Part shown: piece by piece, positions 44,018-64,000 of the stretch
Layout of the letters: each line of letters begins with the position of its first letter
Numbering within the stretch: position 1 is the stretch's first letter
IMG/VR virus record: IMGVR_UViG_3300025141_013434
Span: 81,244 to 145,243 of that record
Reading direction: 5' to 3' (one strand)
Source of the DNA: a virus
Length of the DNA stretch: 64,000 nt
Notes under the pieces: model-generated
The model's database searches: none
What the model saw: the letters and a program-made list of their open reading frames with translations, nothing else
What the model was told of the DNA's origin: nothing
Made by a program: the position numbers and the translations under genes

Positions 44018-44037
44018 GTAATAAATAGGGTTTATGT

Positions 44038-45312: not shown

Positions 45313-45317
45313 AAATG

Positions 45318-45544: not shown

Positions 45545-46411
45545 TTATTCTCCTTCTGTTTCTTCCACTACTGCGCGGCCTTTAAGATTTTCCCAATCTT
45601 TTTCTGGCCGAACCTGCAAATTTGTTTGCCACGCGCCTTTTATCACGTTTGCTTGAATATCCAAAGATTCTGAAAAGTTAATAAACGCGTTTATATCTTT
45701 TGGAAAACAACTTCCTCCAAAGCCCCATTTACCATCAGGGCCTGGAACATTTAAATGTGAATCTCCGACTCGGCCGTCTGCAGCAAAGCCAGCAAGAGCA
45801 GCGTCCCAATTAACTCCTGCTTTTTCTGAAATTAGTTTCATTTCGTTCGCGAAAGCGACCTTTACTGAGAAAAAGACATTATTAAAATATTTTACGAACT
45901 CTGCTGTAGTACTATCCATCTCCATAATATTACAATGCTTGAATCTGAGTCTATAAAGTTCTGCTACTTTTTGGGTATGTTCTTTTAATCCGCCCAAAAC
46001 AATTCTCGATTGATTCAAGAAGTCATATTTTGCATGCCTCTCTGTTAAAAATTCCGGATTGAAAACAATATTTAGATCTGGGAATTCTTGAGCAAAAGAC
46101 TCGGTGGTACCCGGAATAACCGTAGATTTAATAATCACAATGTTATCTTTTCTTGAGTTTACTCTGCTTATATCTTGTAAAACAGACCTAACAATTCCTA
46201 AACTTATTGAACCGTCCCTGTTCATTGGCGTTGGTACCGAAACGAATACTACGTCTGATCTGTTAACAGTCTCTTCTAGAGAGTTCATGCTTCGGAGTGG
46301 GTCTTTGTCATGCACGAATATTGGCAAGACTGGTACGAAACCAAATCCTATTGCTTGGCCCACAAATCCGTTTCCAACAACTCCTACGGCCTTAATTTCA
46401 CTCATTTGCAA
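45545..46411 (-). CDS. UDP-glucose/GDP-mannose dehydrogenase family protein (short, lacks C-terminal domain)
   Basis: GNGFVG, VSVPTP, IKSTVIPGTT, FNPEFL, AEFVKY, GFGGSCFPKD. Confidence 0.9.
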   Translation of the reverse strand: MQMSEIKAVGVVGNGFVGQAIGFGFVPVLPIFVHDKDPLRSMNSLEETVNRSDVVFVSVPTPMNRDGSISLGIVRSVLQDISRVNSRKDNIVIIKSTVIPGTTESFAQEFPDLNIVFNPEFLTERHAKYDFLNQSRIVLGGLKEHTQKVAELYRLRFKHCNIMEMDSTTAEFVKYFNNVFFSVKVAFANEMKLISEKAGVNWDAALAGFAADGRVGDSHLNVPGPDGKWGFGGSCFPKDINAFINFSESLDIQANVIKGAWQTNLQVRPEKDWENLKGRAVVEETEGE

Positions 46412-47246
46412 ACTCCAAAAAACACTCTTTTATTCCAGTTGTTATATTTATTTTCGGACTCCACCCGAGGGCCTTGAGGGGTTGTATATTGGCCCTCGTC
46501 AGCAAAACATCACCCGGGCGGGGGTCGACATATTCAAAATCCAAATCCGGGGCAGCCTCTAAAACAAGATCTTTCATCTCATTAAGAGATATATTCTTTC
46601 CTGTCCCGACGTCAAAAACTTGGCCATGCAATTTATCGTTCTTTATATTGTCTAAGCAAAAGATGTTAGCGGATACAACATCTTTAACATGAGCCATGTC
46701 TCTCCTTTGTTCTCCATCACCAGTTATGAAAGGAGTTTCTCCGCGTTTGATAAAACTTCTCCAATTAGCAACACAAGTTGCATATGGGCCATCGGCCTTT
46801 TGATCTTTAGAATATACATTGAAATATCGCAAAGAAACTGTCCTAACTCCATAAAGCTCCCAATACAAAACAGTTTCAAGCTCGGCAGCAAACTTCGACA
46901 AAGCATATGGATTCGTCGGGCCATTGCCATTTCCGATCACAGAAGATGAACTAGAATACACGACCATTGCGTCAACATTCTTAGCAAACTCTAGAATAAT
47001 AGAAGTAGTATGTACATTATTGTACATCACTGCTTTCGGATATTTCACACTATAGGCAACTCTGGGAATTGCTGCTAAATGAAAAATTACCTCAGGATCA
47101 AATTCATAATGTTTCAGCCCTATATCTGTTAGTATGTCTTCTTCTTCTTTGAGATCTATACCCATAACTTCGTGACCTAAGTCCTGAAGCTCCTGAAACA
47201 AGTGCGATCCAATGTACCCTTTATGGCCTGTTACCAAAACTCTCAT
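46398..47246 (-). CDS. NAD-dependent nucleotide-sugar epimerase/dehydratase
   Basis: TGHKGYIG, FHLAA, YALSK (YxxxK), LRYFNVY, GDGEQRRD, RPGD. Confidence 0.9.
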   Translation of the reverse strand: MRVLVTGHKGYIGSHLFQELQDLGHEVMGIDLKEEEDILTDIGLKHYEFDPEVIFHLAAIPRVAYSVKYPKAVMYNNVHTTSIILEFAKNVDAMVVYSSSSSVIGNGNGPTNPYALSKFAAELETVLYWELYGVRTVSLRYFNVYSKDQKADGPYATCVANWRSFIKRGETPFITGDGEQRRDMAHVKDVVSANIFCLDNIKNDKLHGQVFDVGTGKNISLNEMKDLVLEAAPDLDFEYVDPRPGDVLLTRANIQPLKALGWSPKINITTGIKECFLEFANE

Positions 47247-47944
47247 TCAATATAACCCGCTTCTTTTAGTTCTCGTTCAAATTCTTCGATCTCACTTTCG
47301 TGGCAGAGATTTTTATATTTTTCTAGGTTTTTGCCAATCGAATCCTCTGACAGTTTTCTTTTTCCATAATCTGCACTAGCATCCGCAATACCTAATCGGC
47401 CCTGTACAGACACATTCCAATCATAAACCCAGTCTTCCACATACTTTGGATAATCCGAAAAATTATGATTTTTCTTAATCTTGAAAGCCTTCATGATTCT
47501 TTTTTGAACTTCGTCTGGACTTTTTACCAATTCTTCATAGGATATTTCCACATCAATAATTTCTGAATATTCTTTCCTCTGAGACATAGAAGATATCCAA
47601 CGGCGAGGAGAAACATAATTGCCGTCCGAAAGTACCACGTCGCGGCCGTCCCTTATTACGTTGATAATCCCTATGTTGCTGCTCTTTACCCACTCTGCCT
47701 GTTCCGTGAATTGCGTTTCAGTCGAGCGGGTATTGCTTAATAACGCCGGAGGGAGCCTTTTGCCTATCAAGAACTTTTTGTCACTCTCCTTTTCTACAAG
47801 CTCGTCTATCGTCAACTCGTGTCCGTTGAAGCCCTCTTTATATAGAACTTCAGTGTCTTTGAAGGCGTAACACATCCTTAATAATAAAGTTGTTCCAGTC
47901 TTGGCACACCCTGTAATGAAAATCTTTTTTGTCATATTTTCCAC
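47243..47944 (-). CDS. Sulfotransferase-fold protein
   Basis: ITGCAKTGTTLL (5'-PSB-like), IRDGRDVVLS (3'-PB-like), SYEELVKSP. Confidence 0.7.
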   Translation of the reverse strand: MENMTKKIFITGCAKTGTTLLLRMCYAFKDTEVLYKEGFNGHELTIDELVEKESDKKFLIGKRLPPALLSNTRSTETQFTEQAEWVKSSNIGIINVIRDGRDVVLSDGNYVSPRRWISSMSQRKEYSEIIDVEISYEELVKSPDEVQKRIMKAFKIKKNHNFSDYPKYVEDWVYDWNVSVQGRLGIADASADYGKRKLSEDSIGKNLEKYKNLCHESEIEEFERELKEAGYIE

Positions 47945-48549
47945 GTCTCGTATTCCGGCTGTTTGGTTTTGTTGTTATTATGCATTCTATATCTGTAAAA
48001 GGGGATCTTTAAGTGGTGGATCCTGTATTTATCGCCCAGGCGTTTTCTTAGCTCTTCTTCTTCTTTATGTCTCATTTTCGGGTTGTAGCCGCCAAGCTTC
48101 TCAAAAAGATCCCTTCTGTACATTATAGCACAAGATATATTGTTTTTATCCGCATACCTTCTTTCTAGCGTGTTTTCGTATTCATCGACCATCAAATAGT
48201 CAGAAGAAACACAAAATGCATCATGATTTGCTTCGAGATAAGTTTTCATAATAAAAGCCATATCCTTGTTGATATAATCATCAGCATCGACGCGGAAAAA
48301 GAATTGCCCCCTACAGTTCTGTATTCCCAGATTCGATGCCACTGCAACACCAGAGTTCTTCTTTGTTTTTAAAATTCTTACTTTGTCAGCGAAGGGCTTT
48401 ATTTTTTCTAGAGAATCGTCTGTGCTACAATCATCAACAAGAATGATTTCTACATTCACGTTTGCCTGAGACAAACAACTTCTCAAACATCTAGGGAGAT
48501 AATCTCCATAATTATAATTCGTAACAATTATCGATACTTCTGGCAACAT
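47932..48549 (-). CDS. Glycosyltransferase family 2
   Basis: VSIIVTNYN, LVDDCSTDDS, NSGVAVASNLG, RVDADD, YRYR. Confidence 0.9.
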   Translation of the reverse strand: MLPEVSIIVTNYNYGDYLPRCLRSCLSQANVNVEIILVDDCSTDDSLEKIKPFADKVRILKTKKNSGVAVASNLGIQNCRGQFFFRVDADDYINKDMAFIMKTYLEANHDAFCVSSDYLMVDEYENTLERRYADKNNISCAIMYRRDLFEKLGGYNPKMRHKEEEELRKRLGDKYRIHHLKIPFYRYRMHNNNKTKQPEYETWKI

Positions 48550-48550
48550 A

Positions 48551-49252
48551 TTACTTTCTCAAAATGTCCAATTCTTTTGTCAAGTCTCTAAATTGTTTTA
48601 GAGACTTGTTGTCAAAAGAACAAAGATGTGCGCCTTCGAATTTGCTTTGCGCAAAAATATCATTACTAAAGTGCTTTTCCAGAATCTTTGCGCCGCGGTG
48701 ATGGGCTTGCACTGCTGCTGCGATACCTATCGTGTGATCACTATATCCCGTAAAACTACTCTTTTCAAAATCTTTTGGCATCTTTTTCAACTGCTCATCA
48801 TGGAGAAACGTCGGATATTTAGAGACACAAAATAAATATTGAATGTTTTCAAACCCATACGGAAACTCACCCTCTGGCAGCATGCCTGTTGATATAATCG
48901 TTGGAAGGCCTTTTTCCAATATCTTCTTACATAGCCGCGGGTTTGTGGCAGCTGTCCTACTGGCTATCTTGTGGCGCTTAACATAAGTGCCCTCAAGCCA
49001 TTCAAGTCGTTCTTCATCGAATACTGACGCCATAAACTCTACACCAATAAAATCGCAAAAGGAACTAATCTCGTGAAGATCATCATAACTAATATCTCTA
49101 TATTTCCTATCTGTATTTCCAAAGAACTTTTCAGAATCCATCAATTGCACCTTCACAACGTCTGCGCCGGCAGTAAATGCGGAAAGAGCCATCCGCTTTA
49201 ATTCTTTTATGTCTCCGTGGTGCTGATTGCACAAATCAACTATTATTTCCAT
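48551..49252 (-). CDS. neuB: NeuB/SpsE/PseI-family nonulosonic acid synthase (no C-terminal SAF domain)
   Basis: NQHHGD, AGADVVKVQ, ASVFD, KIAS, IISTGM, CVSKYPT, GYSDHT, LEKHF. Confidence 0.8.
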   Translation of the reverse strand: MEIIVDLCNQHHGDIKELKRMALSAFTAGADVVKVQLMDSEKFFGNTDRKYRDISYDDLHEISSFCDFIGVEFMASVFDEERLEWLEGTYVKRHKIASRTAATNPRLCKKILEKGLPTIISTGMLPEGEFPYGFENIQYLFCVSKYPTFLHDEQLKKMPKDFEKSSFTGYSDHTIGIAAAVQAHHRGAKILEKHFSNDIFAQSKFEGAHLCSFDNKSLKQFRDLTKELDILRK

Positions 49253-49946
49253 GTAAAAACTCCGTCAGCACCCTTTTGGTTTTTGCTTTTATTTCTGTCA
49301 TTATTTCACCATTCATGTCTTTAGCTTGGTATAATTTACCACGAGAAGTAAGAGGCTTTGGTTCAATTTTGTTATTTAATATATTATACACGTTTTCTGC
49401 TAAAAGGTCAAACCCTGTTTTACAAGTTTTCATAAAAACATCATCAGGAGAATCGCGCGATGATAATCCCTGTGTCTGTCTCTGTAATATTATGTCGCCG
49501 CCGTCAATCGAATTATCGATATAATGCACTGTCGCGCCTATGGTCTCTGGGCGCTCCTCTTGCAACGCCCAATATGAACTATCAACGCCGCGGTGGTACT
49601 CAACAAGTCCAGTATGTATGTTAATACAGCCCAGACGGGGTATCGAGAATATTTCCCTTTCTAATAAAGGTGCACCGAAGACAAAACATATATCTGGATT
49701 TAATCTTTTAATTTCTTCTATTATTTGTTTTGAATGCAACTCTTTTGGAGCGCAGAATACCGGGCGCATTCTTTCGATCCACCGGGGCCAGCCTTCTCCG
49801 AAATGATTTAATTCTGATTTTCTAAAATCATCTATACCATTCAATTTAGAAACAATTATTGAATTGTTAATCTCTATTTCTTCTCGTAATCTGTTAATGA
49901 AGGCGAGGTGTCTTAAGCAATTTGATGTTATTATGAGCGACTTCAT
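49236..49946 (-). CDS. Formyltransferase (N10-formyl-THF dependent)
   Basis: CINIHTGLVEYHRG, GATVHYIDNSIDGGDII. Confidence 0.8.
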   Translation of the reverse strand: MKSLIITSNCLRHLAFINRLREEIEINNSIIVSKLNGIDDFRKSELNHFGEGWPRWIERMRPVFCAPKELHSKQIIEEIKRLNPDICFVFGAPLLEREIFSIPRLGCINIHTGLVEYHRGVDSSYWALQEERPETIGATVHYIDNSIDGGDIILQRQTQGLSSRDSPDDVFMKTCKTGFDLLAENVYNILNNKIEPKPLTSRGKLYQAKDMNGEIMTEIKAKTKRVLTEFLHGNNS

Positions 49947-50626
49947 AGTTTTATTGGATTCCTGCCCATTCTTGTAAAGGCTTCTCCCCTATTTGCGTCA
50001 ATAGAATAGCCCCTGATTTTAGTTATACCGTCTATATAACTGCATATATCGTTGAGGATCCCATGTTGCGAGAGGTAAATATCTAGTGCGGCCTTTTTGT
50101 GCATATAGGTTTCTGTTATATCAACTACAATATCTGGATTTGGGTGGGGATCCAATATTTCAAACGACCATAGATCTTTCACTCTGTGGGGCTGACCTAG
50201 TTCTTCTAAAATGTTTTCGTGTGCCTTCCAACATGCTTCTTCTGCCAGGAGAGATGTCCTTTTGTGATCTCTGTGTTTACAAATTTGGTTATGAGTTATT
50301 ACTAAATCCGGCCTTACTTCCCGTATTTTTTGTATAAATTTATGAAAATTTGCTTTCTTATTCGATACCTTTTGGCATTCTAAACCAAAGTTGTGCAGTT
50401 TATATACGCCCAGTGTGGCCGCGGCGTTGTGCGCTTCTTCCATTCTTGTTTCTACGATGTCGCGCGGGATGGTACCTTGTTCCACTCCTGTCGAGCCATC
50501 TGTCACAAAACAGACATGAATTTCAGATCCTTGATTTGACCATTTCTTAATAGTGCCTCCACAACCTATCACCTCATCGTCCTGGTGGGCTGCAAAAACT
50601 AAAACTCTTTTTGGGATATTAATCAT
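49943..50626 (-). CDS. PIG-L/LmbE-family N-deacetylase
   Basis: VFAAHQDDEVIGCGG, VTDG, PDLVITH, HRDH, VDIT...K...Y.SQ. Start placed at ATG 50626. Confidence 0.85.
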   Translation of the reverse strand: MINIPKRVLVFAAHQDDEVIGCGGTIKKWSNQGSEIHVCFVTDGSTGVEQGTIPRDIVETRMEEAHNAAATLGVYKLHNFGLECQKVSNKKANFHKFIQKIREVRPDLVITHNQICKHRDHKRTSLLAEEACWKAHENILEELGQPHRVKDLWSFEILDPHPNPDIVVDITETYMHKKAALDIYLSQHGILNDICSYIDGITKIRGYSIDANRGEAFTRMGRNPIKL

Positions 50627-51224
50627 GTTTCGTTCTCGATTCAACGAACTTTATATCTTCAATAGTATGCACGTCATGGACGTTACAAACATATGCGCCC
50701 GTCTTTATGCTCAGATCCCTTTGGAACACGTAACCCGACTTCATAATCCTAAAAGCTGCATTTTGCATTAAATTTATATCAACGCTTATCAGTTCATTCC
50801 TATCGTGCTTAATAAATTCGCTAATTGCATCATCTAGAATATTCGAAGTAATCTCTGGAGAGTTTGCCTGAAGAGATACGTATATCTGCGATTCCTGAAA
50901 ATTATCTTCTATATATTCCACTGTCGATCGAATGGCTTCCATTTTAAATATATGATCTTCTGACAGCCTTGGGTCTCTGCGATGTATTTTTGCGCCGTAT
51001 TCCGATGCTACTTTTATTATCTCTTCGTCTTCTGTAGATACCCAGACGTCCGAGATCAACTTACTTTCTTTTGCGGCTTTGATCGACCAAGATAACATTG
51101 GCTTGCCCCATATGGGATGAATATTTTTTCTAAGGAGCCTTTTAGAGCCTCCGCGGGCGGGTATAATTGCCGTTATTTTAGGAGCCTTATTGTGTGCAGC
51201 TATAACATCTGCAAGGCCAGTCAT
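50619..51224 (-). CDS. neuA: Acylneuraminate cytidylyltransferase (NeuA/PseF family)
   Basis: IIPARGGSKRLLRKNI, GKPMLSW, VSTEDEEI, LQANSP. GGAGG 6 nt before ATG 51224. Confidence 0.8.
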   Translation of the reverse strand: MTGLADVIAAHNKAPKITAIIPARGGSKRLLRKNIHPIWGKPMLSWSIKAAKESKLISDVWVSTEDEEIIKVASEYGAKIHRRDPRLSEDHIFKMEAIRSTVEYIEDNFQESQIYVSLQANSPEITSNILDDAISEFIKHDRNELISVDINLMQNAAFRIMKSGYVFQRDLSIKTGAYVCNVHDVHTIEDIKFVESRTKHD

Positions 51225-51235
51225 CAAGCCCTCCA

Positions 51236-53251
51236 TCATGGATTAGCTTGCAAAAAGCTAAAAAAGGCATATTTGGGACTTACACACGCAACGCTGGAGA
51301 ACGATATGTTTCTTCTTTCTTTGAAAATTGCCCTAGAGCCTGAATGCAATGCACAAGAATCAAAAAAGATAACATCTCCTGCCTTTCCAGTGCAGACAAG
51401 CAAATCATACTTTGAATCTCCGACTGTTACTGTCTTTTTTCTGTCGACTGGTAGCAACTCGTTGGGTGCACTATCCGGAGAGACGTATCCACAATGTGAT
51501 TTCGGCTTCTTTAGAGAATGTTTAGGCCAAGTGCGAGCTTCACCGTTCTTTGTTGGCCAGTTTGATTCATCGCCATACTTACTAAAACCAGTAAAAGAAA
51601 ACCTATCATGCAAGTGTTGTTTGTCATACTTCTTCTTCGCCCTGTGTGAACCTAGAGCGAAAAGCAGAGGAGCTGTAAACTCATCAACATCCTCCAAGAG
51701 AACCATCGCCTTAAGTCTGGTCACAGAAACATCGCGGTGCCAGCCATTGTGATTTATCGGAGATGGATATATCCATTCCGTGTTGCTCCTCCAATCATTA
51801 CGGGCAGGAACATTTTCATAGCCCGCGAATATGGCTTCAAAGATCGGATTTTTTGTGAGCTTCTCAACACCAGGGGGATGATTGTTGTTAAATATCTTCG
51901 ACTGCATTCTTAGCTGACCATCGTTTGGAAGAGAGGGGGTGTTCCAAAAAGCATCGGGCTTGACGGGGCCCAATATCTCTCTCCAATTGTCAACAAAAAT
52001 TTCCCACCGCTTGGGCCCAATTGCGAATTCTTGTATAACTCTCGAATTAACATATCCCGATATATACTCCCTGGGGTGGAGCTTATCTTTTATCATGTCT
52101 TGAAAGTCTTTTATTTCTTCTAATTCTTCTTCTGAAAAAAGCTTTTCTACTTTTACTATTCCGTTTTTAAACAATTCTCTCACATGCGGCCTAGCTTCTT
52201 CCGGGCAGGAAGAGGACTTTAAGTATTTTTCTTGCTCTTTGTCAAAGAAATTATACATATCAACGAAAAAATCCTTATCTTCTCGCATATTATCACCGAC
52301 AAGGGTCAACTCAGAGAAATCGAATTCTCCTGTATAACGAGATTGCATTTGCTTTTTTATAGAAACATCAGAATTCCAGTCAAGATCTTTTACTGCAGAA
52401 TACGCTCTTTCGGCGATAGACCTTGCCAAATCTTTTCCCTGTGCTGTTTTTTGCACATTTGTCTTAAAAAACCAAAAATCTAAACAATTAGTTTGAAGAG
52501 TTGCTCGGGTTCCTGGTAACTTTATGTTGTGACCTCTTGGCGAACATATGACTTTAAATCCATTTTGCTCGAACCTCTCTACGATTTTATTGGTTTTCGC
52601 GACGGCGGCTTCAGAGGACATATTCAAAACTTCACGAAGATATTGTAGATGAAATTCTCCGGTTAATTTTTTACAATTATTTAAAATAAACTCAAAACTT
52701 TCCTCGTTGTCAAAAATGGAATATTCCGACCCCTCTACATCTATCTTCATAAAATCAATATTAGTGATGTTATTCTCTCTCACTAAATCCATAAAGGAGA
52801 TTGTTTCCACATAATCCCGATTGCTCCTTAGGAGCGAATCGTCTGACGATTCGCGCTCGTCCACAGCGATACAATTTACGGTCCCCCATCTTTTGCCACC
52901 TGTTATGTTTGTATCTATCTTAATGAACTCACCAGTATTATCGCCGGTAATAGCACGGCAAATTGGGAAAAAATTCTCTCTTCCTAATACTCGATTCCAG
53001 TCCTTTAAGGCTGATTCTAGAATTTCAGAATTTGAATTTGAAGCCTCTATTGCATAGCATTTTACATTTTCGACGTCGAGGCACATTGAAGTAAAATCTC
53101 CCTTAGACGCGCCGAGGTCGACAACTACGTCACCTTCTTTAATTTTGAAATATTTGAAATATCCATTTTGCCACCCACTTTTTAATAACTTGGGGATCTG
53201 AAAGTCTTTTAGAGATTTTGTTTCTTTGTTTTGTTTTTCTTTGCTTGTCAT
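51236..53251 (-). CDS. Fusion of FkbM-family methyltransferase and PhyH-like 2OG-Fe(II) dioxygenase
   Basis: N-terminal VVVDLGASKG...IDFMKIDVEGSEY...GEFH; C-terminal GWHRD...GSHR...GKAGDVIFFDSCALHSG...R. Confidence 0.8.
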   Translation of the reverse strand: MTSKEKQNKETKSLKDFQIPKLLKSGWQNGYFKYFKIKEGDVVVDLGASKGDFTSMCLDVENVKCYAIEASNSNSEILESALKDWNRVLGRENFFPICRAITGDNTGEFIKIDTNITGGKRWGTVNCIAVDERESSDDSLLRSNRDYVETISFMDLVRENNITNIDFMKIDVEGSEYSIFDNEESFEFILNNCKKLTGEFHLQYLREVLNMSSEAAVAKTNKIVERFEQNGFKVICSPRGHNIKLPGTRATLQTNCLDFWFFKTNVQKTAQGKDLARSIAERAYSAVKDLDWNSDVSIKKQMQSRYTGEFDFSELTLVGDNMREDKDFFVDMYNFFDKEQEKYLKSSSCPEEARPHVRELFKNGIVKVEKLFSEEELEEIKDFQDMIKDKLHPREYISGYVNSRVIQEFAIGPKRWEIFVDNWREILGPVKPDAFWNTPSLPNDGQLRMQSKIFNNNHPPGVEKLTKNPIFEAIFAGYENVPARNDWRSNTEWIYPSPINHNGWHRDVSVTRLKAMVLLEDVDEFTAPLLFALGSHRAKKKYDKQHLHDRFSFTGFSKYGDESNWPTKNGEARTWPKHSLKKPKSHCGYVSPDSAPNELLPVDRKKTVTVGDSKYDLLVCTGKAGDVIFFDSCALHSGSRAIFKERRNISFSSVACVSPKYAFFSFLQANP

Positions 53252-53272
53252 CGATGTTCCTCTTTTATAGCC

Positions 53273-54295
53273 TTATATTAGCATATCCAAGATCCTTTTG
53301 CAAGATTCTTTATGATCAAAAAGGTGATTCTGTCTCGCCCTCTTGAATTCTTCTGTAAGATCCGCGGACGTCAAATAAGTAGCGGCTGCTTGAAGTTGCC
53401 CCGGAGTGAAGTCTGTTTTCAGTTGGATGCAATAATCATAATCATATAGATAATCATGCGTCACTCTAAATCTTTTTTTATTCCCGTTTCTCACGCTCGG
53501 CTTGATATCAAAATTTATAAGCGGAACATTATGCATTACGCACTCTTCTACAGTGGTTGATCCAAAGTTAATGACAAGCTTAGAGACCTCTAAAAGTTCC
53601 TGTGTGGTGTGAGGAAACCAAGATCGATCTTCTAAATGACGGCCCCCGCTCTTCTTCAACATCTCTTTATACTTTCTTGGAATCGGATCTTTGCCTCTGG
53701 TTTTTGCTAATACCCGGAATCCTGACTTTAACAAAAGTTTTAACAACCTTTCCATATTAACTCTACCCAAATCTCTGTTTTTTGGCCAAATTAAAAGAAC
53801 GTTGTTTGTATCTTGTAGTTTATTGTTTTTGAGAGCTTCAGCCTCAGTGAAAGAAACATCGTATTTCGGAATACCGAGATAGAGGTTATTCCCTTCGGTG
53901 CAGCTGTAGTATTTTGCACAAAACTCACTGGGCATAAGGATGTAATCTGCCACTTCTTTATAAAAGTTGTTATAACTTTCTACAAAATCTGTCTGATAAG
54001 TGCACACAACTTTTTTTGTACTAGGAATCTTTTTTAAGATCTCAATTCCCCATCTGTTTTCGCTGGAAAATAAAACGCCAGTACATTTTTTAACCTCTCC
54101 GATCGACCTAATTTCAATATTGTGCTTTTTCGCTAAATCTTTTATTTTGTCCCTGTAGAGAAATGGACAATTATATTTTTGCGAAGGTGCAATATAGAAA
54201 ACAGACTTTAACCCCCTGCTGTTACCCTCTAGCACGAGAGGCATCCAGTATCTAAGGTGGGTCATTTCCCTGAGAACAAATCCAACCTCACTCAC
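53273..54295 (-). CDS. GT-B-fold transferase (CDP-glycerol glycerophosphotransferase/capsule-type; possible nonulosonate transferase)
   Basis: LGIPKYD and SKLVINFGSTTVEECVMHNVPLI patterns; position in the sugar cluster near neuA. Specificity unknown. Confidence 0.5.
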   Translation of the reverse strand: MSEVGFVLREMTHLRYWMPLVLEGNSRGLKSVFYIAPSQKYNCPFLYRDKIKDLAKKHNIEIRSIGEVKKCTGVLFSSENRWGIEILKKIPSTKKVVCTYQTDFVESYNNFYKEVADYILMPSEFCAKYYSCTEGNNLYLGIPKYDVSFTEAEALKNNKLQDTNNVLLIWPKNRDLGRVNMERLLKLLLKSGFRVLAKTRGKDPIPRKYKEMLKKSGGRHLEDRSWFPHTTQELLEVSKLVINFGSTTVEECVMHNVPLINFDIKPSVRNGNKKRFRVTHDYLYDYDYCIQLKTDFTPGQLQAAATYLTSADLTEEFKRARQNHLFDHKESCKRILDMLI

Positions 54296-55205
54296 TCTTT
54301 AACCTTTCTAGGAACTCTTGAATCAACCTGTCGAAGGCCTTTCGGTCGACGTCTTTCAAGTATCCCTCTTCTAAATAATATTTTATCAGATCATCGCCAA
54401 ACAATGAGGAAAACCTCTTACACATCTCGACGTGATCGGGCTTTGCCTTCCATTTATTTAAAAAAGAGGCGTCTTCTTTTCTAATATAATTATATTCGCC
54501 GGGACCCAAGCATGGACCATGACGGTGGCAATATAAGACCTCCTCGAATCTTTCGCCGCGAACATGTACTTTTTTTCTTATCACCTTTTCAGTCCCACAA
54601 GTACTGCACTTATTTAGAATTTTCAAATCCTTATTTTTCACAACAGGAATATCTAAACACCTAAATATCCTACCTAATTCAGAATCAATATCATTAAAAA
54701 AGTGTTCAAAACTTATTATATGATCTGTTTCTGGCCTGAACGTTTGAGCTAGTTCGAAAAGTGAGGACATAAACGTAGTTTTAAACCACTCGAAGACGAT
54801 ATCGTCGGAAACTGTTTTACCATACCTTCTTTCTCCGTATTCTTTCCATTTCTTTATCCAAGTATAATAAAAAGAAACAGGATTTCTAAAGATATACAAT
54901 ATAGAAATATCTGGGTGGAAAGTCCTATGATAATTTATCATCTTAAGCGGCGGCTTATTTAAAACAAGCCACTCGCAATTGTTTATATCTTTTGCTGGTA
55001 AGAGTTGCTCTTTTACAATCTTTTTCGGGACCAAGCCTCGCGACAACATTTTCTTTAGGTCGCCCTTTGTTGTTCCACCTTGAGACCTAAATGATAATTC
55101 CTTCAAAGCAGCTATAGATGGGTGGCCATGTATCTTGTGTAAAACAAAGTGTGACCCGATGCCGCCGCTGGCTGTTATTAGTGCAGAAAACTTAAATTTA
55201 CTCAT
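54288..55205 (-). CDS. Divergent sulfotransferase-fold protein with Cys/His insertion
   Basis: ITASGGIGSHFV...HPSI, IFRNPVS, ISFEHF...LGRIF; CSTC...CHRHGPC. Confidence 0.5.
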   Translation of the reverse strand: MSKFKFSALITASGGIGSHFVLHKIHGHPSIAALKELSFRSQGGTTKGDLKKMLSRGLVPKKIVKEQLLPAKDINNCEWLVLNKPPLKMINYHRTFHPDISILYIFRNPVSFYYTWIKKWKEYGERRYGKTVSDDIVFEWFKTTFMSSLFELAQTFRPETDHIISFEHFFNDIDSELGRIFRCLDIPVVKNKDLKILNKCSTCGTEKVIRKKVHVRGERFEEVLYCHRHGPCLGPGEYNYIRKEDASFLNKWKAKPDHVEMCKRFSSLFGDDLIKYYLEEGYLKDVDRKAFDRLIQEFLERLKSE

Positions 55206-56107: not shown

Positions 56108-56118
56108 GGACGTGCCTG

Positions 56119-57907: not shown

Positions 57908-57908
57908 C

Positions 57909-58982
57909 TTAAATTATCTCCTTTATTATTCTTGAAATTCTCTTTCCGGATTTGCCGTCCCACAGTTCTGGCTTCTCGAACGGTGGCAGATTCTTTGCTT
58001 TTATCATGTTCAAAGAGGATACAACCTCACTTTTCGAATCTACCAACCGGTTGCTTCCTGCATGAATTGTTGAGGGTCTTTCCGTATTTTTTCTAAGTGT
58101 CAAGCATGGAATACCCAAAGCTGTAGTTTCTTCCTGAATGCCCCCTGAATCAGTGAGTACTGCAGCACTGTTTTTCATCAATGCAGAAAACTCAAAATAA
58201 CCAACAGGATCTATCACTTCTAGTTTTTCTATAGAGTTAAGATCATTAAGTAAACCAAAATTTGCAAAACTATTTCTCGTTCTAGGATGTATGGGGAAAA
58301 TCATTTTAGTACTTACCGATTTACAAATATCCAGTATTTTATTTAATCCCTCAAGATTGTCAACATTGGAGGGTCGATGTAAAGTAACCAAAATATAATC
58401 CTCATCCGCGGGTGAGTCTTCTATCAACGGAAGAACATTATAAAGAGAATCTATCATAGTATTACCCACAAAAAAGATAGAATCTTGACTAGCGCCCTCA
58501 TTCAAAAGATTTTTAACAGCTGAGTTTTCTGTCACAAAGTGAAAATCAGATATTCTATCTACAATTATGCGATTTGTTTCTTCTGGCATTGACCTGTCAA
58601 AACTTCTGAGGCCAGCTTCTATGTGAGCAATTGGAATTCCCATCTTTGTTGCTGCAATAGCAGCGCCGAGAGTTGAGTTGACATCACCATAAACTACCAC
58701 AAGATCGACCCTCTTGCCTGTGAGATATCTTTCTATACCAGTAATGACATCTGCTACTTGCTTTCCTTGCATTCTTGAAGATGCAATCTTTAAGTTTATA
58801 TCTGGCTTTGGAATCTTCAAAGCTTTGAAAAAAATATCAGATAAATTTGCATCATAGTGTTGCCCAGTGTGTATAACAATCTGCTTTAAATCTTTTATTT
58901 CTTCCTTTAGAGCGTTAATGACTGGTGCGGCCTTAACAAAGTTGGGCCTTGCACCAACTACATGTACAATATTTTTAGTCAT
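57909..58982 (-). CDS. wecB: UDP-N-acetylglucosamine 2-epimerase (non-hydrolysing)
   Basis: GARPNFVK, HTGQHYD, GDVNST, HIEAGLRSFD, MPEETNR, TLHRPSNVD, TDSGGIQEE, TERP. Confidence 0.92.
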   Translation of the reverse strand: MTKNIVHVVGARPNFVKAAPVINALKEEIKDLKQIVIHTGQHYDANLSDIFFKALKIPKPDINLKIASSRMQGKQVADVITGIERYLTGKRVDLVVVYGDVNSTLGAAIAATKMGIPIAHIEAGLRSFDRSMPEETNRIIVDRISDFHFVTENSAVKNLLNEGASQDSIFFVGNTMIDSLYNVLPLIEDSPADEDYILVTLHRPSNVDNLEGLNKILDICKSVSTKMIFPIHPRTRNSFANFGLLNDLNSIEKLEVIDPVGYFEFSALMKNSAAVLTDSGGIQEETTALGIPCLTLRKNTERPSTIHAGSNRLVDSKSEVVSSLNMIKAKNLPPFEKPELWDGKSGKRISRIIKEII

Positions 58983-59961
58983 TTATAAGATTATCTCCTG
59001 TCTTTATTCCGGCCAATTGGGCCCAATGGTCGGCCCACAACTCGTTCCCATTTTCATCTGAAAGTCTTGTTATTTCTATACAATCGCCATCACTCACTAT
59101 TACCGAAAGGCCTGCACAATTGTTCTGACGATTGTTGATACAGACGACATTTCCAACTTTATAAGGAAAATAACCATACTTTCTTCTCAGGTTCCATATG
59201 GTTATTTTTCCATATTTTGTTTCTAAAAATGCGCCTGGATAAGGATGAGTCAGAGCCCGGGTGAAATCACAAATCTTCTTAACTGGCCAATTTAAATCTA
59301 TCTTACCATCCTCTGGAGTTCTTTTATAATATCTTGTTGCTTTTGAGTTATCTTGTGGGGCTATTGTTTCCTTGCTTTCTGCTATCTTTGGTATAGTTCT
59401 CTCCAGCATGGTCAGGGCTGTCTTGTCTACCTTGAGATAGGCAGTTCGAATATCATCCCTCTCTTCTATAATAAAGGGTTCAAAGTCTAACACGCCGCCA
59501 GTATCCGTCTTTTCTTCCATAATAAAAAGACTATTTCCCCACTCAACGGACTCTTGGTTGCTTTCTATTATCTTCCAGTTTATTACTGCTGCGCCGCGGC
59601 CGATAGGAAGAGGAGATGGGTGAATTCCTATGCAATATTTTTCAGGAACATTCAAAAGGTCTTTTTTAAAAATCTGTGACCAACCACATTGTACAATAAC
59701 TTCCGGGTTTCTTCTGGAAATCCAATCAACAGTCTTTTTATTATTAATGTTATCAGTCCAGAAAACGTTATAGGGGTTTTCTTTGTAAAATTCTGCCATG
59801 CAATCGTAGTTTGATTTAGTAGTGCCCAGGGATGGTTTTAAATTAACGACGCCAACAAGATCAGATATTTCATCCAAAAGAGACACTACTTTTCTGGCCA
59901 GGGGAGTACAGCCGACAACAAGAGTTCTTAAGTTTGAGACTCTAACATTTTCATTGCCCAT
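58975..59961 (-). CDS. Formyltransferase, Fmt/ArnA-like with C-terminal domain
   Basis: GIHPSPLPIGRGAAVINW, DTG, QDNSKATRY.KRTPEDGKIDLNW, RALTHPYPGA. Confidence 0.85.
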   Translation of the reverse strand: MGNENVRVSNLRTLVVGCTPLARKVVSLLDEISDLVGVVNLKPSLGTTKSNYDCMAEFYKENPYNVFWTDNINNKKTVDWISRRNPEVIVQCGWSQIFKKDLLNVPEKYCIGIHPSPLPIGRGAAVINWKIIESNQESVEWGNSLFIMEEKTDTGGVLDFEPFIIEERDDIRTAYLKVDKTALTMLERTIPKIAESKETIAPQDNSKATRYYKRTPEDGKIDLNWPVKKICDFTRALTHPYPGAFLETKYGKITIWNLRRKYGYFPYKVGNVVCINNRQNNCAGLSVIVSDGDCIEITRLSDENGNELWADHWAQLAGIKTGDNLIND

Positions 59962-60485
59962 CTTCTTGCTATCTCCTTGTGACCTTCGTTCGTGAAGTGA
60001 ACCCCATCAACGTAATATTGTTCAATTCCAAACATGTCGCAAACATCAAAATCCATTTTAACAGACAACTTCATTATAACATCATTATAGGAATCAATCA
60101 AGAAAGTATTCTTAAAATATAGAGGGGTGAAAGCTAGAGAAGGAAGAGTCGCGACAATGACGTGCATTCCATGTATTCTGCACATTGTAATTATTTGTCT
60201 TAAATTATCCTCATATATCTCTGTGGGCATAGCCTTTTGAGTATCGTTTGTACCTATCATAATTAAAGCAATTTTAGAATCCTTATGGGCCCTGGTGGCG
60301 TTCCAAGTTCTACGTAATAAATCAGAACTGGTTTCTCCGCTTATACCGTGGTTATGACAAATATAAACCTCTCCAGACTGTTCTGTCATTATTTTTGATA
60401 ATTCTACTGTAGGCGAGCGTCCGTATTCATCTCGTGCACCGTAAGTGATAGAGTCACCCAAACAAAGTATTTCATTCCAAATCAT
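59928..60485 (-). CDS. SGNH/GDSL hydrolase (esterase or acyltransferase)
   Basis: GDSIT, NHGISG, GTND and DGVH blocks. Confidence 0.9.
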   Translation of the reverse strand: MIWNEILCLGDSITYGARDEYGRSPTVELSKIMTEQSGEVYICHNHGISGETSSDLLRRTWNATRAHKDSKIALIMIGTNDTQKAMPTEIYEDNLRQIITMCRIHGMHVIVATLPSLAFTPLYFKNTFLIDSYNDVIMKLSVKMDFDVCDMFGIEQYYVDGVHFTNEGHKEIARRWAMKMLESQT

Positions 60486-61555
60486 TTTGGCTTCCTTTCA
60501 ATAGTTGACTGTATAATCGGCTTCCTTCCAAGGGCTTGTTGTATAATCTTATTAATATCTATGACCGAAAAGGAAGAACTATACGTCTGGCCCGGCTCTA
60601 CTTTTAAAAAAATCATGAAATCATCAACAATCCTGATACAATAATTGCCGCTGTCACTCAAAAACACACGATCATAGTAAGCCTGAACTGGATGGAGAGG
60701 TGTTTGACTGGAGTTTTTTCTTATTTCTCTTGTTTCCCCGGCAGACGGAGGAAACTCCAAAAGATATGCTTTTTCGATCTTTTCTTTTGTCATATAATAA
60801 TTTGGCGGTCTTTTTTTTGTCAGGTATACGCGATCTTGCTTTTGGCAACTTACCAAGCAAGTCAAATTAGATAAATCAAACAAATCTAAAACATTTGTAG
60901 TGATTTCTCCTAGTTTTGATATATGATCGTCACTAACAAAAATTAAATTTGACCCCGTACAAGCAACAAGAGAATAGCCCTTCTCTTTTGCCAACATTAC
61001 AAAAGACTTAATGGAAGCACCGGTGCCCAAATATTTCTGTATAGGATCGACATATTCTAAGTTTGGAGGTATTGTTTGGTTATACTCTATAACAACACAT
61101 TTTGGTTTATATTGTTCAAAATTCGACCATATATGATAGTCATTGCCATCGACATCGATTGATACCAAATCAAAATCTTTCTCAAATTTGATCCCGTGGG
61201 GTTCGTGCTGAACATTGAAATCATTCAAGATTGCATCCAAGTGATAATGGCCTTCATAATGCTCTGGGGAGTCTTTAGGGTATGCATCAACGAAACAATT
61301 AAGAGTAAAGACGTTTTTGAACTTTTCAACGTTTTTATTTAATTTATCATATTCGTCGATGCCGGGTTCAATCAGAATGGTTTGCCAACCTTTTTTATAA
61401 AAAGGAGCCGTGTTGGAATTCCACAAGCCATCATTTGCCCCAAATTCCACACAAGTTCCCTTTTCTATGCCCAGTCTTTTAAAAATTTCGATAAGAATTC
61501 CGTTAGTTCCATCTCCCGAGGTTATGTCTGATGCATATTCGTTTAAATTTTCCAT
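60482..61555 (-). CDS. FkbM-like methyltransferase
   Basis: CVEFGANDG...SNT, DLVSIDVDGNDY, PKCVVIEYN, GAS...KGYSLV...NLIFV. Confidence 0.7.
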   Translation of the reverse strand: MENLNEYASDITSGDGTNGILIEIFKRLGIEKGTCVEFGANDGLWNSNTAPFYKKGWQTILIEPGIDEYDKLNKNVEKFKNVFTLNCFVDAYPKDSPEHYEGHYHLDAILNDFNVQHEPHGIKFEKDFDLVSIDVDGNDYHIWSNFEQYKPKCVVIEYNQTIPPNLEYVDPIQKYLGTGASIKSFVMLAKEKGYSLVACTGSNLIFVSDDHISKLGEITTNVLDLFDLSNLTCLVSCQKQDRVYLTKKRPPNYYMTKEKIEKAYLLEFPPSAGETREIRKNSSQTPLHPVQAYYDRVFLSDSGNYCIRIVDDFMIFLKVEPGQTYSSSFSVIDINKIIQQALGRKPIIQSTIERKPK

Positions 61556-61556
61556 G

Positions 61557-62504
61557 TTATAGCCTATAATACTCTTTCATCCATTGAACTGTCTCCCACA
61601 CTCCCTCTTCAAGAGATACTGTGTTCTTGTGGTCCAAGTCCCTTACAGACTTTGCTGCGTCGACGTGTTTATGTTTTGTTGTTAAAATTTCATTGTGATC
61701 TCGATAATCAACCAAAGATGCGTCAGCCTTTGTGTACTTTACCAAAATTTTTGCTAAATCTTCAATACTATGTTCTTGGTCTGAGGCAATATTATAAATT
61801 TCACCGTCAATGAAATTATCCGCAATATTTGCCAAGGTCCGAACACTGTCATATATGTATGTACTTGTCCTGGAGTGACCCTTGAATACTGTTATTGGCT
61901 TTCCGTGGAGCAGATTATATGTGAAGAGACAGTTCACACTCCGAAAAGGGTGATACCACTCTCCGGGCCCGTATGTATTGAAAAACCGAACCATCACCGT
62001 CTGGGTATTATGTTGAGATCTGGAATTGTAAACCTGCATCTCATTGACCCTCTTACTCATTGCATAATCGTTCATCTGGATAATCGGGGTTTGTTTTAAA
62101 ACATCCTCATACATCATACCTTCGTAGTCTCCGTACACCTCGGAAGAAGAACAGTGCACCAATTTAAAACCATGTTTTTCTTGGAGTCTGATAATATGTT
62201 TCATTCCTATAACATTTGATTTCCAGACTTTTTCATAAAAATGTTCACCGTTCCAGCGGCCAAATTCTGCTGCGCAGTTATATACCAGATCAGGCTTAAC
62301 ATGCTCAATGATGTTTTCTATCTGCCTGAATTCACCGATATCACATCGAAAATAGTCATCTTTTTCTATCTTGCCCAGGCCATGGCCATAGTTTCGATCT
62401 GTATGATACAAATCAACACCAAAAACTTCGTGTCCTCTAATCTTGAGAATTTCTTCTAGCTTGCTGCCAATAACTCCTAAAACACCTGTAACTAATATTT
62501 TCAC
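61557..62504 (-). CDS. NAD-dependent nucleotide-sugar epimerase/dehydratase
   Basis: TGVLGVIG, SSSEVYG, YAMSK, RFFNTYGPG. Confidence 0.9.
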   Translation of the reverse strand: MKILVTGVLGVIGSKLEEILKIRGHEVFGVDLYHTDRNYGHGLGKIEKDDYFRCDIGEFRQIENIIEHVKPDLVYNCAAEFGRWNGEHFYEKVWKSNVIGMKHIIRLQEKHGFKLVHCSSSEVYGDYEGMMYEDVLKQTPIIQMNDYAMSKRVNEMQVYNSRSQHNTQTVMVRFFNTYGPGEWYHPFRSVNCLFTYNLLHGKPITVFKGHSRTSTYIYDSVRTLANIADNFIDGEIYNIASDQEHSIEDLAKILVKYTKADASLVDYRDHNEILTTKHKHVDAAKSVRDLDHKNTVSLEEGVWETVQWMKEYYRL

Positions 62505-64000
62505 TATTCTTCTCTCCTGCTGACTAACAAACCTTGTTCATAAAAATATAAATAATCTATCTCAGTTCCAAGAAAACAATTTATGGCATGCTCTGGATTT
62601 TCGCAGATAGGCTCCCTATCGTTGAAGCTTGTATTAAGTAGAATTGGAACTCCGCTTTTTTCACGCCACTTTGTTATGAGGTTATAGTACCACTCGTTGT
62701 CATTTTTTGTAACAGTTTGCAACCTAGCAGAACCATCAAAATGCACGACAGCTGGTACCTTATCTCTTACCTCTTCTTTGAACTTAACGACATAACTCAT
62801 ATAGGGGCTATCAACATCCTTTTCGAACCAGTTTTTAACTTCCTCTCTCAATACCGATGGGGCAAATGGCCGAAACCACTGACGATGTTTAACTTTTTCG
62901 TTTATTATATCCTTCATGCCTGGAGATCTTGGATCAGCAAGGATACTTCTGTTTCCGAGCGCTCTTCTACCCGACTCCGAACCTTCTCCGAAAACGGCCA
63001 CGATCTTCTGATCATCCAATAGATCTACCACTTCATCGACAGAAGATTCTCTAACTTTAATTTTTTCTTTAAATTTCTCAAGAATTGGACTCAATATATG
63101 AGAATAATTTCTCCCTAAGTAGGGAGTGAAATTATCCTCCCAGATAATCCTAGGATTATCTAAAGTCTGATGCCAAACATACTGCGCTGCGCCGATCGTT
63201 AATCCGCCGTCATGTGGTGTTGGAGTTACATAAAAATTCTTGTCTGGAAACCAGTCTAACATTTTACCCATCACTACCGAGTTTAAAGTCACGCCGCCGG
63301 CGAAACAAAGATTTTTGTGGTGGCCATGAGATTCCATGAACTTTTCCAAGATTGATCTCAAATATATTTCAGTGGCCTTTTGTAGGCCGGCGGCCAAGTC
63401 AAACTGAGCCTGTTCTCCTTCTCTCGCTATCAGTGTCCATTTGTGCAGATAAGGATGCTTTGGATCAGTGCCTATGTTTTCATCTGGCTGGCCTGCAGGC
63501 TTATGATAAGCTTGTCTTAAATCTCTTGTAAACATATTATAAAAATCATTGAAATATTTATCAGGATCGCCCATACAGGCCATGGCCATAACTGTACCCG
63601 CTTGATGGCCTCGTGGATATCCAGACTGTAATCCAAAAATATATCTTGTTGAGCGTGTCCAAACGCCACCAATATTGAGATTATCTATCGGAAAAACATG
63701 AATAGGTCTTATTTTATTATCTTTACCCTCCCAGACGGTAAAAGAGGTTATGAAGCCTTCCTCTGTCTCAATCCCTCCACCATCAATAGTAATAATGAGT
63801 GCCTCGTCGAAATTGCTAGAAAAGAAAGCATTCGCCGCATGGGCTTGGTGATGACCCACCACATAAAGATTGCCACCATTGCTCTTTAGTGTGCTTTCCA
63901 GTTTAGTTAGAGAATCATTATAGGCTTGTAATTTTTTGAAAGAATAATTCGTAGCAAAATATTTCAAATCTTTAAGAGGACCGAAGTCATCGAACATAAA
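62504..64000 (-). CDS. O-carbamoyltransferase, NodU/CmcH/TobZ family (N-terminus probably outside the window)
   Basis: HHQAHA, IDGGG, AGGVTLN, DGGLTIGAA, RALGNRSILADP, KHRQWFRPFAP, DGSARLQTV, LNTSFN. The frame is open to the window edge. Confidence 0.9.
   Translation of the reverse strand, partial: FMFDDFGPLKDLKYFATNYSFKKLQAYNDSLTKLESTLKSNGGNLYVVGHHQAHAANAFFSSNFDEALIITIDGGGIETEEGFITSFTVWEGKDNKIRPIHVFPIDNLNIGGVWTRSTRYIFGLQSGYPRGHQAGTVMAMACMGDPDKYFNDFYNMFTRDLRQAYHKPAGQPDENIGTDPKHPYLHKWTLIAREGEQAQFDLAAGLQKATEIYLRSILEKFMESHGHHKNLCFAGGVTLNSVVMGKMLDWFPDKNFYVTPTPHDGGLTIGAAQYVWHQTLDNPRIIWEDNFTPYLGRNYSHILSPILEKFKEKIKVRESSVDEVVDLLDDQKIVAVFGEGSESGRRALGNRSILADPRSPGMKDIINEKVKHRQWFRPFAPSVLREEVKNWFEKDVDSPYMSYVVKFKEEVRDKVPAVVHFDGSARLQTVTKNDNEWYYNLITKWREKSGVPILLNTSFNDREPICENPEHAINCFLGTEIDYLYFYEQGLLVSRREE

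Follow-up and report, generated by a model that had tools for sequence, protein, structure and literature searches.

A variable glycan-gene island anchored by a conserved glycosyltransferase pair in far-T4-like marine myoviruses

Which acceptor would receive the glycan encoded by a large cluster of sugar genes in a phage whose contig shows no export machinery by hydropathy? The question is raised by positions 81,244 to 145,243 of the IMG/VR virus record IMGVR_UViG_3300025141_013434 (64,000 nucleotides, here called the window), the final stretch of a 145-kb contig whose estimated completeness is 68%. Positions 45,545 to 64,000 are filled by 20 contiguous open reading frames (ORFs), which, like every other gene of the window, are encoded on the minus strand; since the window ends where the contig ends, the glycan cluster is truncated. 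The best-supported reading, which we judge to be evenly balanced between right and wrong, is the cytoplasmic glycosylation of virion proteins. It starts from the observed gene content, its solubility, the conserved architecture, the hypervariability and a motif excess on virion proteins. Islands of glycan genes have been described before in marine myophages, and both mycobacteriophages and giant viruses are known to glycosylate their virions; new here is an island of a predicted ~26 kb and ~30 genes that is anchored by a conserved two-enzyme core.

The island and its constant core

Besides a sheath and a T4-type major head protein, this myovirus has gp6- and gp25-like baseplate proteins, a primase and a gp55-like late sigma factor. 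Microcystis phage Mel-JY01, Flavobacterium phage immuto and a 484-kb uncultured phage have baseplate wedge proteins that are only ~31% identical to its own. Over 200 loci of this family are found in IMG/VR, several of them on contigs of 185-194 kb, and the lineage hosting the island is a large family of ~190-kb marine far-T4-like myoviruses. Relatives were found by anchoring on the late sigma factor (53-79% identical across the 80 IMG/VR loci compared); the carbamoyltransferase was dropped as an anchor, its loci being non-syntenic mosaic glycan clusters. Among the 80 loci, the genes of the window are common only to the closest few, and most of the others carry other short-chain dehydrogenases/reductases (SDRs), heptose modules, carbamoyltransferases or NeuB-like genes. 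The island gene order is shared with G001 (190,183 bp, rated complete), G002 and G005 at 51-92% protein identity.

In these three genomes the carbamoyltransferase gene at the window end is preceded by ~8 kb of further island, encoding a cupin, a HAD phosphatase, a heptose kinase resembling RfaE domain I, an adenylyltransferase resembling RfaE domain II, a weak GT9 glycosyltransferase, a 323-aa unknown protein, a GT2 enzyme and, at the far left, two GT4 enzymes of 421 and 705 aa. Judged from this comparison, the whole island would measure ~26 kb with ~30 genes, and the window would hold its right-hand two thirds; the GT4 pair of this phage would lie past the contig end, out of sight of the sequence-only reading. 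The site is fixed, between the genes for a PD-(D/E)XK nuclease and the late sigma factor, and the GT4 pair directly follows the nuclease in all 14 relatives with a visible left border. What follows the pair is highly variable: the length from the pair to the small genes before the sigma gene is 2.5 (pair alone), 5.2, 7.5, ~9, 21, 23 or 25.7 kb, and the number of accessory genes between the pair and the sigma gene ranges from 0 to ~25. The conserved left flank also includes, beside the nuclease, a PIN-PhoH fusion (L174:8023-9366, corresponding to G001 90022-91365).

The same core is found by tblastn in cultured phages. Both members of the pair lie side by side in immuto and Mel-JY01, and the first member alone in LR756508 and in Rhodothermus phage RM378. 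The nuclease holds the same position in immuto and Mel-JY01; in immuto it is followed by the pair and then by ~9 kb of variable sugar genes (GT2, aminotransferases, methyltransferase, mannosyltransferase, acetyltransferase, epimerase and a further glycosyltransferase), and the order in Mel-JY01 is similar. Since the pair has been kept across phages of Bacteroidota, of Cyanobacteria and of the marine group, an acceptor that travels with the phage is favoured over a host-specific one.

The two enzymes are retaining GT4 transferases and distant paralogues (hhalign probability 96%, 16% identity), and both have the catalytic EX7E motif. In the 705-aa member the conserved part spans ~410 aa, and the C-terminal ~290 aa are a variable fusion. 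This C-terminal domain (L174:13974-14828, or G001 95973-96827) is missing in some relatives and forms a separate ORF in one (L074:224-1093); it has no Pfam match, and its predicted fold is alpha/beta, with a predicted local distance difference test (pLDDT) score of 50-88. AlphaFold models of the pair reached pLDDT 80 and 84, and the top fold match of both in the PDB is the chlorovirus NY-2A glycosyltransferase B736L (PDB 3oy2; E 4e-20 and 3.4e-14). B736L is also the top sequence match of one member; the sequence identity to the pair is just 14-17%. The protein O-GlcNAc transferases SdgB and GtfA stand lower among the fold matches (ranks 9 and 36). In chloroviruses the capsid protein is glycosylated by cytoplasmic enzymes that the virus itself encodes; we know of no established acceptor for B736L itself.

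Virion proteins as candidate acceptors

The motif [ST][GA]S was counted in phage proteins and tested against 300 composition-preserving shuffles of each. Six outer virion proteins carry it in ~4-6-fold excess over the shuffle expectation: the sheath (11 observed, 2.9 expected), proteins of 1072 aa (21 and 5.4), 3957 aa (46 and 9.4) and 657 aa (11 and 1.8), and two proteins of ~430 aa (6 and 1.1; 7 and 1.4). There is no excess in the proteins of 2614, 1420 and 976 aa, nor among the enzymes, where the only flag is a single copy in the island Methyltransf_24 gene. The two giant structural genes of the window, encoding the 3957-aa and 2614-aa proteins, differ in this respect, with an excess only in the first and 1 copy against 2.3 expected in the second, a contrast which suggests that one product is exposed and the other internal. 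In immuto, tail-spike, fibre and baseplate-distal proteins are enriched (53 versus 11.9, 13 versus 1.7, and others), and the polymerase, terminase and portal are not; the long tail fibres of T4, used as a negative control, show no excess either. In addition, the ESM Atlas clusters nearest to two accessory transferases are 97-100% viral, which points to a long residence in phages and not to a recent capture from a host O-antigen locus. The motif excess and the fold match agree with a glycan coat on the virion, short of proof.

We infer the following acceptor, sugars and sequence of steps. The variable toolkit would make activated sugars, namely CMP-ulosonic acid, UDP-N-acetylmannosamine (UDP-ManNAc) and its uronic acid, and ADP-heptose, and would also supply amino sugars that are de-N-acetylated and then N-formylated. 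In the cytoplasm, the GT4 pair would place the first sugars on Ser or Thr in exposed loops of phage structural proteins, mainly sheath insertions and fibre-like proteins, with the head as a lesser target. GT2, GT4 and TagF-like transferases would extend the glycan, which would also be tailored with O-carbamoyl, O-methyl, sulfate, O-acyl and hydroxyl groups, the outcome being a lineage-specific glycan coat. Since the particles leave by lysis, neither a lipid carrier nor an export step would be needed. More broadly, and in a version that we hold slightly more likely to be wrong than right, far-T4-like phages of a lineage widespread in the sea and in fresh water would coat themselves with a host-independent glycan, the GT4 pair reading a short [ST][GA]S tag on outer virion proteins and the island of 0 to ~25 genes setting the phage 'serotype' through ulosonic acids, heptose, N-formyl, carbamoyl, methyl and sulfate groups, as a counterpart of O-antigen diversity and of the glycans of giant viruses.

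In G001, the gene strand carries 11 perfect TTGAC[AT]-N16-18-TATAAT sites and the opposite strand 1, and four of the perfect sites (92335, 99391, 104178 and 112794) lie at or inside the island. The two sigma70-type promoters of the window (Table 1) lie inside coding sequence, and both have a perfect counterpart at the same place in G001. A candidate late box, ACTATTTA(T), was seen in G000 and G001 at 11-62 nt ahead of the starts of sheath and other virion genes, in 7 of 38 upstream intergenic regions where 0.36 would be expected, and its first copy comes immediately after the sigma gene; it is tentatively regarded as a late promoter, being enriched in upstream intergenic DNA and not window-wide. 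The island contains no copy of this box. For the T4 late promoter TATAAATA, the gene strand shows no enrichment. Because sigma70-type promoters are present and the candidate late box is absent, the island is probably read by the host sigma70 polymerase before the late genes. The classical -35/-10 sites also suggest that the host is probably not a member of Bacteroidota. A box copy precedes the gene for the single polytopic protein of the complete G001 genome, a 195-aa HlyIII/PAQR protein (L182:14063-14650, or G001 54063-54650; box ACTATTTA).

Several points weigh against a virion acceptor. The reversed motif is raised too, partly since SGS fits both orientations, and the excess could stem from what fibres and the insertion loops of the sheath require structurally. 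In the fold search with the 421-aa GT4, B736L leads MshA by a small margin, and GT-B folds are uninformative about the acceptor. The three closest relatives have a gene resembling GT9 heptosyltransferases, which recalls the assembly of lipopolysaccharide (LPS) core. Chlorovirus glycosyltransferase genes are also expressed early, and the probable early expression of the island is compatible with a virion coat but lends it no support and does not separate the readings. The virion acceptor proposed in the sequence-only reading is the best-supported one; the late expression that would have spoken for it is not what the promoters predict. Finally, comparable islands of pelagimyophages were published as modifying the O-chain of the host (PMC7029224).

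Rival acceptors

By Kyte-Doolittle hydropathy, the ORFs of the cluster have no transmembrane segment except a Rossmann strand of the dehydrogenase, and the window contig encodes no polytopic protein. The absence of polytopic proteins and export machinery, noticed in the cluster by the sequence-only reading, holds family-wide, since none of the 670 ORFs in the islands of 65 relatives has three or more hydrophobic segments. It also extends beyond position 64,000: the proteins of the ~8-kb extension in the relatives have no membrane segment, and no flippase, polymerase or transporter is found among them. In the contig, the complete G001 and the 65 islands, hydropathy reveals no flippase, polymerase or ABC permease (10-12 transmembrane segments). 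No Bac_transf initiating phosphoglycosyl transferase was detected in five genomes, two of them complete, in which positive controls responded, and neither the contig nor G001 encodes a polytopic protein that might be WecA. It had been argued from the missing membrane parts that the acceptor is a protein, but this does not follow. Assembly of LPS core or lipooligosaccharide (LOS) on lipid A (Waa/Lgt/Cst) likewise involves only soluble or peripheral transferases, plus host MsbA, and the phage could borrow initiating and flipping enzymes from its host.

Such a remodelling of the host envelope is, in our estimate, unlikely but a serious contender. On the cytoplasmic side of the inner membrane, a new glycan would be assembled on a lipid of the host, either LOS-like on lipid A-core or on undecaprenyl phosphate, and exported by host MsbA, Wzx and ligase, the changed cell surface then blocking competing phages. 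This is the published reading of the glycosyltransferase-rich hypervariable islands of pelagimyophages and cyanomyophages, which carry rfaE and UDP-glucose dehydrogenase genes and whose O-chain modification was proposed to prevent co-infection (PMC7029224). A GT9-like gene and an ADP-heptose module in close relatives agree with it, and the early expression predicted from the sigma70 promoters would suit a change of the host. However, the GT9 match is rare and very weak: it is found in only three close relatives, in a region absent from the window contig, and its 35.7 bits in Pfam (cut-off 22) compare with 25 bits against 134.6 for WaaF, far below the cut-offs of both WaaC and WaaF. The adenylyltransferase resembling RfaE domain II reaches 158 bits against 181.5, and both RfaE-like domains lie near or below their cut-offs. 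Moreover, the GT4 pair is kept in phages of Bacteroidota, Cyanobacteria and the marine group, whose envelopes differ, the minimal islands consist of the pair alone, and the 65 islands contain no GtrABC-type or O-acetylase membrane enzymes, which phages that convert the serotype of their host typically have. Envelope remodelling would leave the [ST][GA]S excess on virion proteins unexplained, and the mostly viral neighbourhood of two accessory transferases also speaks against it. Should the envelope be the target after all, the island would be among the largest phage-borne surface-conversion toolkits known, without a membrane enzyme of its own. A different soluble acceptor, such as a small-molecule glycoside, a thiol-like metabolite, a free oligosaccharide, or a glycan on a host or non-virion phage protein, in a metabolic or signalling module, appears improbable. 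No observation fixes the acceptor, the 421-aa GT4 weakly matches BshA and MshA, and the PIG-L deacetylase resembles BshB1, but none of these matches comes near its equivalog cut-off, the Pfam results for the island ORFs include no BshC or MshC-type ligase, and 0 to ~25 accessory genes with many tailoring enzymes are typical of exposed glycans under diversifying selection and not of a metabolite pathway.

Hypermodification of DNA, in which a complex glycan on a modified base would evade restriction, was named as a competitor in the sequence-only reading and is now largely excluded; we regard it as very improbable. In its favour, base-modification loci are known to include glycosyltransferases, 2-oxoglutarate (2OG) oxygenases and carbamoyltransferases, a PD-(D/E)XK nuclease gene invariably precedes the GT4 pair, and the early-type promoters resemble those of the DNA glucosyltransferase genes of T4. 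But genes for the enzymes that make the chemical handle were not found. The ThyA family supplies 5-hydroxymethylcytosine (5hmC) and 5-hydroxymethyluracil (5hmU), and also 5-hydroxycytosine (5hoC) for arabinosylation, the latter according to a 2026 paper (PMC13326640). Neither a thymidylate-synthase-family gene (PF00303) nor a C5 DNA methylase (PF00145) was detected in the same five genomes, where positive controls responded, and no match to Tet_JBP (PF12851) was obtained there in a search that had no positive control. The Dpd/Que, ThyA-like and PolA proteins of immuto found nothing in G000 or G001 by tblastn, and the PhyH dioxygenase is part of an accessory fusion absent from the closest relatives. 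The island formyltransferases were considered as DpdN-like preQ1 formyltransferases and rejected, the DpdN of immuto having no match in G000 or G001 and DpdA and Que genes being absent. Phage immuto has the same pair and island architecture, and its DNA, analysed by liquid chromatography with ultraviolet and mass spectrometric detection, contains only dA, dC, dT and 7-(formylamino)methyl-7-deazaguanine (fdPreQ1), with no glycosylated nucleoside (10.1101/2023.04.13.536721). This modified base is the product of a separate Dpd/Que cluster, located 14 kb away from the GT4 pair. The last alternative, misassembly of a bacterial fragment into a phage contig, has next to no probability left. The cluster does lie at the contig end, with a G+C content of 0.36-0.42, slightly below that of the tail-gene region, but the same gene order recurs within three or more independent contigs of other samples (G001, G002 and G005), with phage genes on both sides in the complete G001. 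Loci L011 and L013, from two further samples, carry the right-hand part with protein identities to the G001 locus that are near-identical, and in strand and gene packing the cluster agrees with the remainder of the phage.

Window genes, related systems and implications

The ORFs of the cluster were assigned to families with Pfam and NCBIfam profiles and their cut-offs (Table 1), and the earlier inventory of ~20 contiguous, often overlapping genes of named families is borne out. Thirteen of the 19 junctions overlap, and the widest gap is 21 nt; the description of a cluster running with almost no intergenic space into the sigma gene is apt within the cluster but not before that gene, where ~230 nt are intergenic. 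Megablast of the island against GenBank phages gave no match.

Table 1. Features of the window, numbered from its first letter
Positions	Strand	Feature	Basis
62504..64000	-	NodU/CmcH-type O-carbamoyltransferase	Pfam Carbam_trans_C 213 bits, Carbam_trans_N
61557..62504	-	SDR NDP-sugar 4,6-dehydratase/epimerase	Pfam Epimerase 131 bits
60482..61555	-	FkbM-type methyltransferase, accessory	Pfam Methyltransf_21
60073..60101	-	Sigma70-type promoter, extended -10 TG, ~112 nt upstream of ArnA-like formyltransferase	10/12
59928..60485	-	SGNH/GDSL hydrolase (probable sugar O-acyl esterase or transferase)	Pfam Lipase_GDSL_2 78 bits
58975..59961	-	ArnA/Fmt-like sugar N-formyltransferase, N and C domains	Pfam Formyl_trans_N and Formyl_trans_C; NCBIfam ArnA-like 139 bits, sub-threshold
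57909..58982	-	Non-hydrolysing UDP-GlcNAc 2-epimerase, WecB type, product UDP-ManNAc	Pfam Epimerase_2 334 bits; TIGR00236 304 bits
57050..57907	-	Methyltransf_24, sugar O-methyltransferase type	Pfam 49 bits
56119..57060	-	GT2 glycosyltransferase	Pfam Glycos_transf_2 59 bits
55202..56107	-	GT4-like GT-B glycosyltransferase	Pfam sub-threshold; ESM Atlas neighbours are GT4 clusters
54288..55205	-	Sulfotransferase-like, weak assignment	Pfam Sulfotransfer_1 22.5 bits (cut-off 22)
53273..54295	-	GT-B transferase, Glyphos_transf (TagF-like) type, 340 aa	No Pfam match of its own; judged from homologues
51236..53251	-	Fusion of FkbM methyltransferase and PhyH 2OG-Fe(II) dioxygenase, accessory	Pfam
50619..51239	-	CMP-ulosonic acid cytidylyltransferase, PseF/KdsB/NeuA family	Pfam CTP_transf_3 88 bits
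49943..50644	-	PIG-L family de-N-acetylase	Pfam PIG-L 98 bits; BshB1 model 128 bits, sub-threshold
49383..49411	-	Sigma70-type promoter, ~130 nt upstream of NeuB-like gene	11/12
49236..49946	-	Sugar N-formyltransferase, N domain only	Pfam Formyl_trans_N 56 bits
48551..49252	-	Short NeuB-family ulosonic-acid synthase	Pfam NeuB 117 bits
47932..48549	-	GT2 glycosyltransferase	Pfam Glycos_transf_2 106 bits
47243..47944	-	Sulfotransferase, match to 3'-phosphoadenosine 5'-phosphosulfate (PAPS) loop	Pfam Sulfotransfer_3 31 bits (cut-off 27)
46398..47246	-	SDR NDP-sugar epimerase	Pfam Epimerase 144 bits
45545..46411	-	Compact NDP-sugar 6-dehydrogenase, 288 aa	TIGR03026 190 bits; motifs
45061..45542	-	Acidic 74-aa protein and Zn-ribbon_8 protein, right border of island	Pfam Zn_ribbon_8
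44038..44832	-	gp55-like late sigma factor, flank, outside island	phrog_234
44022-44028	-	ACTATTTA(T) box copy, directly after sigma gene	
30928-38772	-	Giant structural gene, 2614 aa	
14856-26729	-	Giant structural gene, 3957 aa	
508-514	-	ACTATTTA(T) box copy	

Several assignments carry qualifications. The N-terminus of the carbamoyltransferase is cut by the contig end, with ~45 aa missing (the G001 orthologue has 542 aa and is 74% identical). For the SDR next to it the top NCBIfam model, dTDP-glucose 4,6-dehydratase, is sub-threshold; an SDR is found at the position of the right-hand one in most relatives. The WecB-type epimerase passes TIGR00236 (cut-off 210), and its score with the NeuC model is just 87 bits. 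The NeuB-like synthase, of 233 aa, has no SAF domain and a shortened barrel, reaching 108 bits against an equivalog cut-off of 400 and staying far below threshold with both the NeuB and the PseI models; the epimerase in its neighbourhood is of the non-hydrolysing type. The cytidylyltransferase scores 112 bits against 206 with the PseF model, and both sulfotransferase assignments are barely above the Pfam cut-offs. The GT4-like enzyme matches ESM Atlas GT4 clusters, mostly viral, with scores of 0.99-1.00. By synteny, the separate FkbM gene is present in G005 and missing from G001 and G002, and the FkbM-PhyH fusion is missing from all three; a search for relatives with the fusion as query gave just one weak giant-virus fragment. 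PDB sequence searches with the ORFs of 340, 301, 305 and 233 aa returned nothing usable.

The 340-aa GT-B protein belongs to at least 117 homologous sequence clusters; 9 of 26 homologues match PF04464 (best E 8.6e-6), and its ESM Atlas neighbours include Glyphos_transf and polysialyltransferase clusters. Its gene lies two genes away from that of the cytidylyltransferase in the window and directly adjoins it in G001, where the FkbM-PhyH fusion is lacking. Because of this adjacency it is a candidate transferase for the CMP-activated ulosonic acid, a donor assigned by inference. The compact dehydrogenase retains the GNGFVG (GxGxxG) motif and the catalytic Cys (CFPKD) and lacks the entire C-terminal UDP-binding domain; relatives at 73-81% identity are of equal length, so the compact form is under selection. 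The two small ORFs after it were considered as its missing C-terminal domain, an idea rejected since they are kept in relatives without the dehydrogenase. They encode the acidic 74-aa and Zn_ribbon_8 proteins, always precede the late sigma gene in ~80 relatives and may be partners in late transcription.

Among known systems, the nearest in setting are the 'host recognition cluster' of pelagimyophages and cyanomyophages and their hypervariable islands of LPS genes (Zaragoza-Solas et al. 2020, PMC7029224). They too are non-syntenic, glycosyltransferase-rich islands near structural genes in large marine T4-type myophages, with rfaE-type heptose genes, UDP-sugar dehydrogenase and Nol-type carbamoyltransferases, and homologues of the window carbamoyltransferase occur at 30-42% identity in HTVC008M, P-SSM2 and S-CAM phages. 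However, the present phages are of another lineage, the search with the baseplate wedge protein having neither group among its named matches, and in contrast to the pelagimyophage islands theirs lies between nuclease and sigma genes, is anchored by the GT4 pair and has no tail-fibre genes. The host O-chain function of the pelagimyophage islands was itself inferred in the publication (PMC7029224). In mycobacteriophages, according to the account of Freeman et al. (2023) given in PMC12619734, soluble glycosyltransferases encoded by the phage attach glycans to capsid and tail proteins within the infected cell's cytoplasm, as mass spectrometry showed. The GT4 pair is likewise phage-encoded, soluble and conserved in its lineage (all 14 relatives with a visible border, immuto and Mel-JY01), but the mycobacteriophage cassettes, as described in that account, consist of few genes and use host sugars, whereas the present island has up to ~30 genes and its own predicted nucleotide-sugar pathways in a Gram-negative-type phage.

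The glycosylation gene sets of chloroviruses and mimiviruses are clade-specific. Their cytoplasmic, host-independent assembly of glycans by viral enzymes resembles the proposed one, and B736L is the top fold match, but these are giant viruses of eukaryotes and, as said above, distant from the pair in sequence. Flagellin islands of Campylobacter, Helicobacter and Aeromonas share all-soluble nonulosonic pathways, formyl and methyl tailoring and hypervariable content, and their protein acceptor is modified in the cytoplasm. In contrast to them, no complete Pse, Leg or Neu pathway is present at the equivalog level, and the epimerase is of the non-hydrolysing WecB type; no PseB, PseC or PseH-type dehydratase, aminotransferase and acetyltransferase set, and no aminotransferase, is found in the window with Pfam and NCBIfam, and the Maf (MptE-like) transferase PF01973 is absent from the five genomes, where controls responded. 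GtfA/GtfB and SdgA/SdgB, which act on serine-rich and Ser-Asp repeat adhesins, are likewise two adjacent cytoplasmic GT-B proteins of GT4 type associated with short serine-containing repeats. The phage pair, however, has no DUF1975 insertion by Pfam, carries EX7E in both members, whereas GtfB is non-catalytic, and is not accompanied by accessory Sec genes. Finally, O-antigen and capsule loci of the Wzx/Wzy or ABC-transporter type differ in having the initiating transferase and the flippase, polymerase or permease that were not found here.

The GT4 pair offers a simple marker for such systems, and the cultured relatives immuto and Mel-JY01 make the question of the acceptor directly testable. 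If virion proteins are indeed the target, the 'LPS genes' of viromes that are counted as host-directed auxiliary genes would need to be re-read. The adsorption, aggregation, grazing and decay of marine phage particles, as well as their recognition by host defences, would then have to be rethought.

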